DNA of 13,511 nt from Escherichia coli (GTDB lineage: Bacteria > Pseudomonadota > Gammaproteobacteria > Enterobacterales > Enterobacteriaceae), in assembly GCF_003334315.1 (NCBI RefSeq), contig NZ_QOWR01000081.1. One strand, 5' to 3'. The position numbers were made by a program, and so were the translations under genes. Shown one piece after another: positions 5,749-13,511 of this stretch (its first letter is position 1; every line of letters starts with the position of its first letter). The notes below the pieces were generated by a model that was not told the origin of the DNA, made no database searches, and saw nothing but the letters and a program-made list of their open reading frames with translations.

Positions 5749-7287
5749 ATGACCAATAATCCCCCTTCAGCACAGATTAAGCCCGGCGAGTATGGTTTCC
5801 CCCTCAAGTTAAAAGCCCGCTATGACAACTTTATTGGCGGCGAATGGGTAGCCCCTGCCGACGGCGAGTATTACCAGAATCTGACGCCGGTGACCGGGCA
5901 GCTGCTGTGCGAAGTGGCGTCTTCGGGCAAACGAGACATCGATCTGGCGCTGGATGCTGCGCACAAAGTGAAAGATAAATGGGCGCACACCTCGGTGCAG
6001 GATCGCGCGGCGATTCTGTTTAAGATTGCCGATCGAATGGAACAAAACCTTGAGCTGTTAGCGACGGCTGAAACCTGGGATAACGGCAAACCCATTCGCG
6101 AAACCAGTGCTGCCGACGTGCCGCTGGCGATTGACCATTTTCGCTATTTCGCCTCGTGTATTCGGGCGCAGGAAGGTGGGATCAGTGAAGTTGATAGCGA
6201 AACCGTGGCCTATCATTTCCATGAACCGTTAGGCGTGGTGGGGCAGATTATCCCGTGGAACTTCCCGCTGCTGATGGCGAGCTGGAAAATGGCTCCCGCG
6301 CTGGCGGCGGGCAACTGTGTGGTGCTGAAACCCGCACGTCTTACCCCGCTTTCTGTACTGCTGCTAATGGAAATTGTCGGTGATTTACTGCCGCCGGGCG
6401 TGGTGAACGTGGTCAATGGCGCAGGTGGGGTAATTGGCGAATATCTGGCGACCTCGAAACGCATCGCCAAAGTGGCGTTTACCGGCTCAACGGAAGTGGG
6501 CCAACAAATTATGCAATACGCAACGCAAAACATTATTCCGGTGACGCTGGAGTTGGGCGGTAAGTCGCCAAATATCTTCTTTGCTGATGTGATGGATGAA
6601 GAAGATGCCTTTTTCGATAAAGCGCTGGAAGGCTTTGCACTGTTTGCCTTTAACCAGGGCGAAGTTTGCACCTGTCCGAGTCGTGCTTTAGTGCAGGAAT
6701 CTATCTACGAACGCTTTATGGAACGCGCCATCCGCCGTGTCGAAAGCATTCGTAGCGGTAACCCGCTCGACAGCGTGACGCAAATGGGCGCGCAGGTTTC
6801 TCACGGGCAACTGGAAACCATCCTCAACTACATTGATATCGGTAAAAAAGAGGGCGCTGACGTGCTCACAGGCGGGCGGCGCAAGCTGCTGGAAGGTGAA
6901 CTGAAAGACGGCTACTACCTCGAACCGACGATTCTGTTTGGTCAGAACAATATGCGGGTGTTCCAGGAGGAGATTTTTGGCCCGGTGCTGGCGGTGACCA
7001 CCTTCAAAACGATGGAAGAAGCGCTGGAGCTGGCGAACGATACGCAATATGGCCTGGGCGCGGGCGTCTGGAGCCGCAACGGTAATCTGGCCTATAAGAT
7101 GGGGCGCGGCATACAGGCTGGGCGCGTGTGGACCAACTGTTATCACGCTTACCCGGCACATGCGGCGTTTGGTGGCTACAAACAATCAGGTATCGGTCGC
7201 GAAACCCACAAGATGATGCTGGAGCATTACCAGCAAACCAAGTGCCTGCTGGTGAGCTACTCGGATAAACCGTTGGGGCTGTTCTGA
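5749..7287 (+). CDS. aldB: Aldehyde dehydrogenase B (NAD(P)-dependent)
   Basis: 512-aa reading from ATG 5749 preceded by AAGGAGA (5736-5742); translation [17 protein letters not shown]... with ALDH catalytic signatures (ELGGKSP glutamate motif, catalytic Cys in GEVCTCPSR). The track ORF start at 5611 is an unsupported upstream extension that overlaps the yiaY terminator. Confidence 0.92.
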
Positions 7288-7318
7288 TATAAGAAGCTGG
7301 TCGCATTGGGTATTCATT

Positions 7319-7400
7319 GCCTGATGCGACGCTTACGCGTCTTATCATGCCTACGGGAACCTGACCGTAGGCCGGATAAGGCGTACACGCCGCATCCGGC
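7319..7400 (+). repeat. REP/BIME element (two REP palindromic units in opposite orientation) downstream of aldB
   Basis: GCCTGATGCGACGCTTACGCGTCTTATCATGCCTAC (7319-7354) and GTAGGCCGGATAAGGCGTACACGCCGCATCCGGC (7367-7400) match the enterobacterial REP consensus families as I recall them. Confidence 0.75.
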
Positions 7401-7505
7401 ATAAACAAAGCGCACGTTGTTACAATTTACGTTTTAAACCTACGTGCGCAATAACCCAGACTACGCCAACAGAAGTGCGTTTCTGGGGCGTGTTTTGTCA
7501 GGAGT

Positions 7506-7646
7506 TTAATCTCGCGTTTCGATGGTGAGCGGGCGAACCAGGCCGTAAATCACCATTGGTGATCCGAGGCCAATCAGCAATAAACGGTAGATAATTGAAG
7601 GTTTAATACGCTTAATCTGTACTGTGGATGTTTTACTGGAGTTATT
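7506..7646 (-). CDS. Hypothetical small protein (47 aa from ATG 7646..7644; 70 aa if started at 7718), one predicted transmembrane helix
   Basis: Only ORF in the AT-rich aldB-yiaW spacer; translation MNNSSKTSTVQIKRIKPSIIYRLLLIGLGSPMVIYGLVRPLTIETRD has a basic stretch followed by a about 20-aa hydrophobic segment; no clear Shine-Dalgarno; unverified. Confidence 0.15.
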   Translation of the reverse strand, partial: NNSSKTSTVQIKRIKPSIIYRLLLIGLGSPMVIYGLVRPLTIETRD

Positions 7647-7765
7647 CATTAGTTTGGCCAATAGTTCCACTATTTCAATATGATAAACCTCGTCCTGTTG
7701 AAAAACCAGACAGCACATTTAAGAAAGTATATAAAAAACAATATGTCGTTATATAAATAAGGAAA

Positions 7766-7794
7766 TTGCACTGCATCATGGCATTTCATAATAT
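7766..7794 (+). promoter_or_regulatory. Candidate sigma70 promoter for yiaWV (-35 TTGCAC, 17-bp spacer, -10 TAATAT)
   Basis: Hexamers read by eye at 7766-7771 and 7789-7794 in an AT-rich region about 40 bp upstream of the yiaW ATG; no experimental support. Confidence 0.2.
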
Positions 7795-7831
7795 GCGTTA
7801 ATTGTTCTTTTTTATATTCTTTGAGGGAAAT

Positions 7832-8155
7832 ATGTTCCTGGACTATTTTGCACTGGGAGTGCTTATTTTTGTATTTCTGGTGATCTTCTATGGGATCATT
7901 ATTTTACATGATATTCCCTACCTGATTGCCAAAAAACGTAATCATCCTCATGCCGACGCCATTCATGTTGCTGGTTGGGTGAGTCTTTTTACGTTACATG
8001 TTATCTGGCCGTTTTTGTGGATTTGGGCCACGCTTTACCGCCCGGAGCGGGGATGGGGAATGCAAAGCCATGATTCATCCGTTATGCAACTGCAACAGCG
8101 CATTGCCGGGCTGGAGAAACAGCTCGCCGACATCAAATCCTCTTCTGCCGAGTAA
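7832..8155 (+). CDS. yiaW: Small inner-membrane protein YiaW (DUF3302 family, AaeX-like partner of a membrane fusion protein)
   Basis: 107-aa reading from ATG 7832 preceded by GAGGGA; two hydrophobic helices ([40 protein letters not shown]) then a coiled C-terminal tail; the track start at 7802 lacks an RBS. Confidence 0.85.
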
Positions 8156-8160
8156 TACTT

Positions 8161-9306
8161 ATGGATTTACTGATTATTTTGACCTATGTGGCTTTTGCAT
8201 GGGCAATGTTTAAGATCTTCAAAATTCCCGTAAATAAATGGACCATTCCCACAGCGGCCCTGGGTGGAATATTTATTGTCAGCGGTCTAATTCTGTTAAT
8301 GAACTATAACCATCCGTATACCTTTAAAGCGCAAAAAGCGGTTATTTCTATTCCTGTTGTCCCACAGGTGACTGGTGTGGTGATTGAAGTGACGGATAAG
8401 AAAAATACGCTGATTAAAAAAGGTGAGGTGCTATTTCGACTGGACCCGACGCGTTATCAGGCGCGGGTGGATCGGCTGATGGCGGATATCGTTACCGCAG
8501 AACATAAACAGCGGGCGTTGGGCGCAGAGTTAGATGAGATGGCGGCGAATACTCAGCAGGCAAAGGCCACGCGGGATAAATTCGCTAAAGAGTATCAGCG
8601 TTACGCACGTGGCAGCCAGGCGAAAGTAAACCCGTTTTCAGAACGCGATATCGATGTGGCGCGGCAAAATTATCTGGCGCAGGAAGCCTCCGTGAAGTCA
8701 TCGGCGGCGGAACAAAAACAGATCCAGAGCCAGCTGGATAGCCTGGTGTTGGGTGAACATTCTCAAATCGCCAGCCTGAAAGCACAGCTCGCGGAAGCAA
8801 AATATAACCTTGAGCAGACGATAGTGCGTGCGCCGAGCGATGGTTATGTGACCCAGGTACTGATTCGTCCGGGTACCTATGCCGCGTCGCTGCCGCTACG
8901 TCCGGTGATGGTGTTTATACCCGATCAGAAACGACAAATCGTGGCGCAGTTCCGTCAGAACTCCTTGCTGCGACTGGCTCCTGGCGACGATGCGGAAGTG
9001 GTGTTTAATGCTCTGCCAGGTAAGGTATTCAGCGGTAAGCTGGCAGCCATTAGTCCAGCCGTTCCCGGCGGAGCTTATCAGTCGACCGGCACCTTACAGA
9101 CGTTAAACACAGCGCCGGGTTCAGATGGCGTTATCGCGACCATTGAACTGGATGAGCACACTGATTTGAGCGCTTTACCAGACGGTATTTACGCCCAGGT
9201 GGCGGTTTACTCTGATCATTTCAGCCATGTCTCGGTGATGCGCAAAGTGCTATTACGCATGACCAGCTGGGTGCATTACCCACACCTGCGGCAACCGTGG
9301 CGATAG
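8161..9306 (+). CDS. yiaV: HlyD-family membrane fusion protein YiaV; last about 9 codons are junction-derived, not native
   Basis: 381-aa ORF starting 5 nt after the yiaW stop; N-terminal TM helix, biotinyl/lipoyl-like beta-barrel and long coiled-coil segments typical of membrane fusion proteins; from about 9280 the same nucleotides encode the WcaK N-terminal motif in another frame. Confidence 0.85.
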
Positions 9307-9361
9307 CGCCATTCTGCGCGGGCTTTTAGATGCCATCAACACGCTCTCGCCTGAGGCTGAA

Positions 9362-10537
9362 GTGGATGTGATGAGCCGTTATCCGGTGAGTTCTTCCTGG
9401 TTGCTCAATCGCCCGGTGATGGGCGATCCGCTCTATTTGCAGATGAAAGCGCATAACAATGCGCCGGGCATGGTCGGGCGAGTGAAGAAAGTATTGCGTC
9501 GTCGCTATCAGCATCAGGTGCTGCTGTCACGCGTCACGGACAGCGGCAAGCTGCGCAATATCGCCATTGCTCAGGGCTTTACCGATTTTGTGCGTCTGTT
9601 GTCCGATTATGACGCGATTATCCAGGTGGGCGGATCGTTCTTCGTCGACCTGTATGGTGTGACGCAGTTTGAGCACGCGCTGTGCACCTTTATGGCGAAA
9701 AAACCGATTTATATGGTCGGCCATAGTGTCGGGCCGTTCCAGGCACCGGCGTTTAACCATATGGCAAACTATGTCTTTGGTCACTGCGACGCGCTGTTCC
9801 TGCGCGAGTCGGTCAGCCTTGATTTGATGAAACGCAGCGACATTGACACCTCGAAAGTGGAGAAGGGTGTCGATACCGCCTGGTTGGTCGATCACCACGA
9901 TGACAGTTTTGACGCGAGCTACGCCGTCCAGCACTGGCTGAATGTGGCGCAGCAGCAGAAAACCGTGGCGATTACCCTGCGTGAACTGGCGCCGTTTGAT
10001 AAACGCCTGGGCACCACGCAGGAAGCCTACGAAAAAGCGTTTGCGGGCGTGGTAAATCGGATCATCGCCAGCGGCTGGCAGGTGATGGCGCTCTCTACCT
10101 GTACGGGCATCGACAGCTATAACAAAGACGATCGCATGGTGGCGCTTAACCTGCGTAAACATATTCAGGACCCATCGCGCTACCACGTGGTGATGGATGA
10201 GCTTAACGATCTCGAAATGGGCAAACTGCTGGGCGCCTGTGACCTGACGGTCGGTACGCGTCTGCATTCAGCAATTATCTCCATGAACTTCGGAACACCG
10301 GCGATTGCGATTAACTACGAACACAAATCAGCGGGCATTATGCAGCAACTGGGTATGCCGGAAATGGCAGTCGATATTCGCCATCTACTGAATGGCGACC
10401 TGGAAGCGATGGCGGCAGACACCTTGGGTCAACTCTCAACGCTTGTGCCGCGCCTCAATGACGCGGTAGCGCGTGAGCGCGCGGCGGGGCTGGCGATGGT
10501 GGAATCGGTATTAACGCGCATCGGGGAGGGGAAATGA
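9362..10537 (+). CDS. wcaK: Colanic acid biosynthesis pyruvyl transferase WcaK, 5'-truncated (homology begins at 9281 with no start codon; first in-frame starts are GTG 9362 and ATG 9371)
   Basis: Frame-2 translation from 9281 reads [20 protein letters not shown]..., the conserved N-terminal motif of polysaccharide pyruvyl transferases (PF04230-type); the frame is closed by TGA at 9260-9262; stop overlaps the wcaL start (ATGA). Confidence 0.8.
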   Translation: MDVMSRYPVSSSWLLNRPVMGDPLYLQMKAHNNAPGMVGRVKKVLRRRYQHQVLLSRVTDSGKLRNIAIAQGFTDFVRLLSDYDAIIQVGGSFFVDLYGVTQFEHALCTFMAKKPIYMVGHSVGPFQAPAFNHMANYVFGHCDALFLRESVSLDLMKRSDIDTSKVEKGVDTAWLVDHHDDSFDASYAVQHWLNVAQQQKTVAITLRELAPFDKRLGTTQEAYEKAFAGVVNRIIASGWQVMALSTCTGIDSYNKDDRMVALNLRKHIQDPSRYHVVMDELNDLEMGKLLGACDLTVGTRLHSAIISMNFGTPAIAINYEHKSAGIMQQLGMPEMAVDIRHLLNGDLEAMAADTLGQLSTLVPRLNDAVARERAAGLAMVESVLTRIGEGK

Positions 10538-13158: not shown

Positions 13159-13360
13159 ATTTTTAGCCGAACCCACCTCTTCAGACGCATTCTCGGATTG
13201 TATCCAGAGATTTAGCGGTATTTACCCGATACTATGAGAAAACATAGTGGATCAAACAACGTTAATAGCTATAATTCATCAACCGTATATAGGTGGACAC
13301 GATAATGGGTGATGATGCCAACTTACTGATTTAGTGTATGATGGTGTTTTTGAGGTGCTC

Positions 13361-13420
13361 CAGTGGCTTCTGTTTCTATCAGCTGTCCCTCCTGTTCAGC
13401 TACTGACGGGGTGGTGCGTA
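13361..13420 (+). promoter_or_regulatory. JUMPstart-like sequence with degenerate ops-like core, downstream of wcaM (upstream of the next polysaccharide locus)
   Basis: Begins CAGTGGCT (13361-13368) and ends GGGGTGGTGCGT (13408-13419), resembling JUMPstart ends (CAGTGGCTCTGG...GGGGCGGTAGCGT) as recalled, but the 8-bp ops GGCGGTAG is not intact. Confidence 0.2.
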
Positions 13421-13511
13421 ACGGCAAAAGCACCGCCGGACATCAGCGCTATCTCTGCTCTCACTGCCGTAAAACATGGCAACTGCAGTTCACTTACACC
13501 GCTTCTCAACC

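Follow-up and report, generated by a model that had tools for sequence, protein, structure and literature searches.

The yiaW-yiaV pair of Escherichia coli: a conserved module of a DUF3302 membrane protein and an EmrA-like adaptor without a linked pump gene

The window analysed here, meaning the whole stretch of 13,511 nucleotides, is E. coli chromosome and carries, in order, yibF, selA, selB, yiaY, aldB, a small minus-strand ORF, yiaW and yiaV. In a genome comparison, positions 7400-9280 were found to share 100% identity with many complete E. coli chromosomes. At 9280 the match to yiaV ends and that to the interior of wcaK begins, followed by wcaL and wcaM. The yiaW ATG at 7832 coincides with the RefSeq start, its coding sequence matches RefSeq yiaW of strain CP53, and yiaV begins at 8161, 5 nt past the yiaW stop. 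Both genes are already annotated in E. coli and are not in themselves new. The features of this region are the following.

7823-7828, plus strand: Shine-Dalgarno-like GAGGGA ahead of the yiaW ATG, read off the sequence
7832-8155, plus strand: yiaW coding sequence, 107 aa, DUF3302 two-helix inner-membrane protein (translation, Pfam, E. coli annotation, AF2)
7937-7951, plus strand: yiaW codons 36-40 (R-N-H-P-H), the DUF3302 signature at the predicted hairpin tip (alignments, AF2)
8161-9280, plus strand: native part of the yiaV coding sequence, codons 1-373 plus 1 nt, out of 378 (100% identity to E. coli yiaV)
8164-8310, plus strand: yiaV codons 2-50, TM helix 1, a conserved loop and helix 2 (hydropathy, AF2)
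8449-8814, plus strand: yiaV codons 97-218, alpha-helical hairpin, a putative docking element for an outer-membrane channel (AF2, EmrA profile alignment)
9223-9280, plus strand: yiaV codons 355-373, conserved C-terminal helix, shortened by the junction (AF2, conservation)
9280-9281, no strand assigned: breakpoint between yiaV nt 1120 and wcaK nt 24, with one shared C (alignments)
9281-9306, plus strand: foreign tail of the yiaV ORF (PHLRQPWR, stop TAG), out-of-frame wcaK DNA (translation, wcaK alignment)

The wcaK junction that had been noticed after yiaV is confirmed at 9280/9281, within the yiaV ORF, and alignment of the window to the native sequences of yiaV and wcaK places the join out of frame. 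Native yiaV comprises 1137 nt and encodes 378 aa ending in ...WVHYLYLDH, and the ORF in the window encodes 381 aa with another C-terminus and a stop at 9306. The conserved last five yiaV codons are replaced by the join, and the stop at 9306 is therefore not native; with these codons go the end of the C-terminal helix and the nearly invariant terminal histidine, and the wcaK start codon is lost as well. The initial annotation had given the pair as 7832-9306, of which both gene starts hold, and the end coordinate is, on the alignments, a fusion artefact and not the yiaV stop, since yiaV identity ends at 9280. Because its conserved last five codons were lost to wcaK, the window copy of yiaV is probably impaired, and, truncated as it is by an unusual join, it is not to be used as a functional allele. 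A query across the join was compared with 5,426 complete E. coli genomes, and in none of them did any place cover at least 80% of it; the join is thus found in none of them.

Judged by their sequences, yiaW and yiaV are real genes and no chance ORFs, because their products match Pfam and MFP models and because dN/dS is 0.02-0.08 for both genes against the orthologues from Citrobacter, Pseudocitrobacter, Serratia and Trabulsiella, with dS near saturation. By the same comparison, both are under strong purifying selection, which can be regarded as secure. Promoter and terminator scans of 7250-9450 returned matches no more numerous than in shuffled sequence.

YiaW matches the Pfam family DUF3302 (PF11742) with an E-value of 2.7e-43, residues 3-78 corresponding to model positions 1-76 of 77, and it has no DUF1656 match in the Pfam scan and no NCBIfam family. 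At a threshold of E <= 1e-3, DUF3302 comprises 881 clusters at 50% identity. The AF2 model of YiaW (pLDDT 87.8) consists of helix 2-35, turn 36-40, helix 41-68 and a separate C-terminal helix 82-106, residues 36-40 being the sole non-helical stretch between the two long helices. This turn bears the DUF3302 signature R-x-H-P-H, and R36, H38 and P39, like A33, A43, S51, W59, P60 and W65, vary little or not at all in two DUF3302 alignments (A1 and A2). The family match and the model bear out the earlier description of YiaW as a small two-helix membrane protein. According to the positive-inside rule, the tip would be cytoplasmic and the tail periplasmic, and the conserved loops, R-x-H-P-H in YiaW and the loop of YiaV described below, would both face the cytoplasm.

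YiaV matches the Pfam domains CusB_dom_1 (5.4e-15) and HlyD_D23 (1.8e-09) and 17 NCBIfam adaptor models, every one of the latter below its curated cutoff. Of the NCBIfam models, MdtN and the EmrA/EmrK subfamily score highest, with 112 bits apiece and far below their cutoffs (390.8 for the subfamily model TIGR00998), and the cutoffs were likewise not reached for TIGR01730 RND_mfp (88 against 94.9), the EmrA model NF011715 (52.5 bits against 563) and the AaeA equivalog model (63.4 bits against 400). The AF2 model (pLDDT 84.5, from a 59-sequence alignment) contains N-terminal TM helices 2-19 and 28-50, also apparent from hydropathy, a lipoyl domain, a long alpha-hairpin (helices 97-152, 161-193 and 201-218), a beta-barrel and a C-terminal helix 355-374, with no membrane-proximal domain. 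In Foldseek the model is closest to E. coli EmrA of the EmrAB-TolC complex (E 1.6e-21, TM-score 0.64-0.69; PDB 8ZAL/8ZAR), and MacA, AcrA and MexA are matched as well. Profile alignment of the YiaV family to E. coli EmrA covers residues 60-347 of the latter (E 7.9e-26), and profile positions 62-265, hairpin included, run gap-free; the hairpin therefore has the length of that in EmrA. Residues F17, K18, F20, P23, N25, K26 and W27 are invariant or nearly so, R361, R366, M367 and W370 are invariant and H378 is nearly invariant. The two-TM N-terminus with its loop is kept from E. coli to Bacteroidota and Campylobacterota, as is the C-terminal helix, whose conserved pattern ends in Y....H.

In TCDB, YiaV is listed as 8.A.1.1.4, 'uncharacterized' (PMC10971958). 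Pfam, NCBIfam, TCDB, AF2, Foldseek and the EmrA profile alignment thus agree with its previous assignment to HlyD-type adaptors, and by sequence and predicted fold YiaV is an EmrA-like HlyD/MFP-type periplasmic adaptor (TC 8.A.1). The HMM searches that the initial annotation had proposed consequently place YiaW in DUF3302 and YiaV among MFP/HlyD models, and the identity, domain architecture and predicted fold of the two proteins are secure. A role of the pair in anti-phage defence was also considered and rejected, as PADLOC returned no family for either YiaW or YiaV.

In strain CP53, yiaV is followed by the convergent yiaU (LysR, 4-nt overlap) and then by yiaT (MipA/OmpV), and no pump gene adjoins yiaWV in this native locus. 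The earlier statement that no pump gene follows yiaV is therefore true of the window, and the look downstream of yiaV in a reference genome, which had been suggested along with it, likewise brought up no cognate pump gene. A LysR regulator (yiaU-like) recurs beside the pair in several loci. About 16 kb upstream of yiaWV, native genomes carry the paralogous pair yibI-yibH, whose products are 75% and 77% identical to YiaW and YiaV, share their architecture and are of corresponding size (YibI 120 aa, YibH 378 aa), again with no neighbouring pump. The paralogues differ in the C-terminal tail, which is longer in YibI than in YiaW, and in their flanks, which consist of mtlA on one side and, on the other, yibF in many strains and RHS remnants in CP53. 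E. coli K-12 thus has two copies of the module, yiaWV and yibIH, and both are still in the uncharacterised 'y-ome'.

The pair had been described as uncharacterised, in agreement with TCDB and with the literature, which treats both genes so and is sparse for DUF3302. The published phenotypes of yiaW and yibI are weak and indirect. Deletion of yiaW is cited in PMC12844161 as raising the efficiency of Ca2+-transformation, and macrophage-evolved mucoid clones acquired an IS1 insertion in yiaW that had no effect by itself (PMC5495878). Urine induction and a fitness phenotype are on record for yibI and not for yiaW: in UPEC, yibI is induced by urine, and the yibI mutant reached a competitive index of 0.33 and was reduced in adhesion and urine fitness (PMC5404293). 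The study of YiaU/LpsR lists yiaT and waa genes as targets, and yiaWV is not among the targets listed there (PMC9068703).

The systematic survey covered 173 loci, namely E. coli, 75 GTDB genome loci, 80 metagenome contigs and individual contigs of divergent members. The GTDB scan with the DUF3302 alignment returned only close relatives, mostly Enterobacterales together with Aeromonas, and the distant contexts come from the individual contigs and the metagenome scan; two more loci, L175 and L176, were added after the survey and inspected directly. Pairing was counted among the 158 DUF3302 genes that have 400 nt or more of sequence downstream, and a YiaV-type MFP gene was located directly 3' on the same strand, with a gap of -4 to +18 nt, in 151 of them. 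Of the seven exceptions, several have decayed and the others lack enough downstream sequence for a judgement; MFP fragments are present in two of the decayed copies (L144 and L146), and in another two (L109 and P0183) an in-frame fusion joins the DUF3302 protein to the MFP C-terminal helix. The pair is kept while its neighbours differ, as seen at the yiaW and yibI loci, in Erwinia, Serratia, Yersinia, Pantoea and Aeromonas, and in a 7-Mb genome. By these comparisons, yiaW-yiaV, an operon of two genes, is an ancient, obligately paired and strongly conserved unit that occurs in several phyla.

No co-oriented linked RND, MFS, ABC or FUSC gene was found in the approximately 170 loci. The annotated co-oriented large neighbours are all unrelated to efflux and include RadD helicase, PTS IIBC, a sulfatase, ECF transporter parts and GGDEF proteins, and the sole EmrB-like gene in the survey (L060) is encoded on the opposite strand, in a separate operon that has an MFP gene of its own. 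The idea of a cation/proton antiporter as general hidden partner was rejected, as an HMM search detected CPA-type genes in only three of the 173 loci (L006, L089 and L164), where they flank the pair, and two of these three share 56% identity. The pairing and the lack of a linked pump are secure. Calling YiaV an 'orphan' adaptor, as the initial annotation did, is appropriate in the sense of pump-less; it is not appropriate in the sense of a remnant that lost its pump, as the pair is obligate and conserved across phyla.

Linkage to an outer-membrane channel gene was observed in distant members of the family and is equally secure. In five distinct contexts from at least two phyla, a TolC-family (PF02321, OEP) gene forms one tight operon with the pair, at intergenic distances of 2-16 nt.

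OEP-DUF3302-MFP order: L007-L010, one context (L007)
OEP-DUF3302-MFP order: L087/L088, Reichenbachiella
OEP-DUF3302-MFP order: L091
DUF3302-MFP-OEP order: L089, Sulfurovum-like
DUF3302-MFP-OEP order: L175, hydrothermal vent

The L089 contig provides an internal control, as it carries a complete FUSC-OEP-DUF1656-MFP operon and, 3 kb downstream, the DUF3302-MFP-OEP operon without a pump; the FUSC pump belongs only to the separate DUF1656 operon. Across both gene orders, the pair-linked OEPs are approximately 30-55% identical to each other and only 21-25% identical to the OEP of the FUSC operon on L089, and because their mutual identity exceeds their identity to the latter, sequence comparison suggests that the OEPs linked to the DUF3302 pair may form a dedicated lineage. 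None of the enterobacterial loci and none of the 80 metagenome loci has an adjacent OEP gene; with most loci thus lacking it, the evidence for an OEP link comes from a single divergent clade of the family.

It is plausible that the module works as follows. YiaV would oligomerise like EmrA, and its hairpins would dock a TolC-family outer-membrane channel, which in E. coli would be TolC, encoded elsewhere, and in some other phyla a dedicated channel from the same operon; where no OEP gene adjoins, the module would use one encoded elsewhere. The E. coli pumps AcrAB, EmrAB and MacAB use TolC. The DUF3302 protein and the TM helices of YiaV itself would supply the inner-membrane part that is otherwise the role of a pump, and the outcome would be an envelope-spanning conduit for a small substrate. 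Docking of an OEP by YiaV is likely, given the gene linkage and the predicted fold, and physical docking to TolC itself and a direction of transport would follow only by extension from the same evidence. The weakest part of the proposal is that the DUF3302 protein would serve as sole inner-membrane partner with no other pump. A two-TM protein together with two adaptor TM helices contains no recognisable energy-coupling module. The mechanism taken as a whole, that is, a pump-less, channel-docking module with DUF3302 as its dedicated inner-membrane partner, may be correct or not with about equal chances.

A more far-reaching version is speculative and rather doubtful, namely that the DUF3302 protein, a YiaV-type adaptor and a TolC-family channel constitute a previously unrecognised class of tripartite conduit. 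Its portal would be a ring of DUF3302 hairpins and the two TM helices of the adaptor, the invariant R-x-H-P-H tip would be a gate on the cytoplasmic side or a site for substrate or ion, and the conduit would contain no RND, ABC, MFS or PET transporter. If TolC docking without a canonical pump is true, it would represent a new inner-membrane solution in the tripartite efflux/secretion repertoire, and the proposal would be the first functional hypothesis for DUF3302, with its approximately 880 clusters at 50% identity. What is new here is the conserved pump-less architecture with its occasional OEP linkage, which deserves experiment.

The main rival explanation is that the pair represents an adaptor and a small accessory subunit working with an unlinked canonical pump (MFS, PET/FUSC or ABC), which YiaW would modulate in the manner of small pump-associated proteins. 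This is possible and would be a rare case of adaptor-pump unlinking, yet it appears on the unlikely side: it is consistent with the collinearity of the periplasmic part of YiaV with EmrA, which wraps the MFS pump EmrB, with adaptors of pump systems being the best NCBIfam matches of YiaV, and with the module having no obvious energy-coupling element, whereas the observed linkage is the reverse of the normal one, an OEP gene being linked in five contexts and a pump gene in none of approximately 170 loci. The L089 contig argues in the same direction, as the AaeAB-type system there keeps its linked FUSC gene and the DUF3302 operon nearby is without a pump.

An account without transport is improbable, in which the module would be a periplasm-spanning structural or sensing assembly built on an adaptor fold, for instance for envelope tethering or stress sensing. 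In its favour, the module has no energy module or pump, the reported deletion phenotypes of yiaW and yibI concern envelope properties, and LysR neighbours are recurrent, YiaU/LpsR controlling LPS core genes; however, the EmrA-length hairpin and the in-operon TolC-family genes point to a channel-docking conduit, and Pfam and NCBIfam scans found no sensor or signalling domain in YiaW or YiaV. Finally, the pair had been said to resemble AaeX-AaeA, and it might in principle be a degenerate AaeXAB-like operon minus its AaeB-type pump, as the order of a small two-TM protein followed by an adaptor mimics aaeX-aaeA and YiaV weakly matches AaeA. This derivation is essentially excluded. The AaeA match, at 63 bits, is far under the cutoff, and an hhalign profile comparison of 28 DUF3302 sequences against 20 DUF1656 sequences gave a probability of 0.5%, a value of limited sensitivity as the DUF1656 set is narrow (Sulfurovum-like, 69-90% identity). 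Together with the Pfam result, this indicates that YiaW is not homologous to AaeX at the sequence level, and the resemblance is positional only; moreover, the lack of a pump extends across all phyla, and strong purifying selection acts on both genes.

Among known systems, AaeXAB is like yiaWV in having the gene of a small two-helix membrane protein directly upstream of the adaptor gene, a likeness that, by sequence, is one of gene order only, and it differs in its FUSC/PET pump gene, such an AaeB/FUSC gene being absent from the DUF3302 operons both natively and in all surveyed loci. The MdtNOP and YdhIJK systems are related to AaeXAB, and MdtN is a best NCBIfam match of YiaV (112 bits). EmrA shares with YiaV the lipoyl domain, the long alpha-hairpin, the beta-barrel and the lack of a membrane-proximal domain, but the identity between them is only approximately 20%, EmrA has one N-terminal TM helix whereas YiaV has two, and the conserved C-terminal helix of YiaV lies outside the EmrA-aligned part. 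YiaV also differs in having a DUF3302 protein as its upstream partner, with no adjacent DHA2 MFS pump gene (EmrB-like) in the native locus or in the survey. Proteins of the AcrZ type are, like YiaW, small membrane proteins encoded or acting with a tripartite efflux assembly; they bind the large pump, whereas the DUF3302 protein is obligately co-encoded with the adaptor and no pump is present. The genes normally linked in tripartite systems are those of the adaptor and the pump, with the outer-membrane factor often encoded apart, and in the loci surveyed here this linkage is inverted, the adaptor gene being found never with a pump gene, always with a DUF3302 gene and sometimes with an OEP gene.

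For the 3' flank of the yiaWV pair, comparison of the window with native yiaV and wcaK placed wcaK nt 24 directly after yiaV nt 1120, out of frame and with one C common to both genes, and the start codon of wcaK was lost through this join. None of the 5,426 complete E. coli genomes spanned it. As the two loci are ~1.6 Mb from each other on the K-12 map, a simple deletion would not be viable; the join may instead be a chimera of the assembly, a product of engineering or the outcome of a complex rearrangement. At the 3' end of the window, an IS1 end accounts for the final ~225 nt and the native wcaM-galF region is matched only up to ~13308; together these alignments indicate that an IS1 insertion is located directly downstream of wcaM. 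On the other side of the pair, the gap between aldB and yiaW contains a small ORF; the RefSeq annotation of strain CP53 has a 47-aa hypothetical protein there (9107-9250 of its native region L001).

Features of the window
7506-7718, minus strand: small ORF between aldB and yiaW
9280-9281 (and 9281-10537): yiaV-wcaK join, from sequence comparison with yiaV and wcaK
~13285-13511: end of an IS1 element, 95-97% identical to IS1A copies

For the gene neighbourhoods of DUF3302-adaptor pairs, a cation/proton antiporter gene was found directly beside the pair in three of the surveyed loci (L006, L089 and L164) and in none of the other ~170. The antiporter proteins of L089, a Sulfurovum-like contig, and L164 are 56% identical, and the linkage is probably lineage-specific. 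Several enterobacterial loci that are unrelated to one another have a LysR regulator of the yiaU-like cluster adjoining the pair, with orientation differing between them. It is possible that this regulator is dedicated to the pair; yiaWV is not among the targets in the published YiaU/LpsR regulon (PMC9068703). In locus L109 and in protein P0183, the DUF3302 protein continues in frame into the adaptor's conserved C-terminal helix (..LLRMRSWQNY..), and the entire periplasmic part of the adaptor is deleted. The product represents a decayed copy or, alternatively, a minimal variant; if functional, it would place the DUF3302 protein and the adaptor helix on one membrane side.

Features adjoining or altering the pair
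L006 8451-9635, minus strand: CPA2-type cation/proton antiporter gene
L089 9716-10933, plus strand: K+/H+ antiporter-like gene
L164 8451-9674, plus strand: K+/H+ antiporter-like gene
L001 10895-11869 (also L028, L032, L070, L073 and L083): yiaU-like LysR gene
L109 6734-7462: DUF3302-adaptor C-terminal helix fusion

Within E. coli, yiaWV appears to be variably present, judging from megablast matches in the same complete genomes: 3,835 carry a match of at least 95% identity, the best match is just 80-90% in a further 1,010, and 578 have none. The 80-90% matches may represent the paralogous pair yibI-yibH.

Paralogue of yiaW-yiaV
L002 12689-14190 (native region of strain CP53): yibI-yibH

This pair, situated in native genomes ~16 kb upstream of the yibF gene present in the window, likewise has no adjacent pump gene in CP53, and its products share the architecture of YiaW and YiaV, with protein identities of 75% and 77%, respectively.
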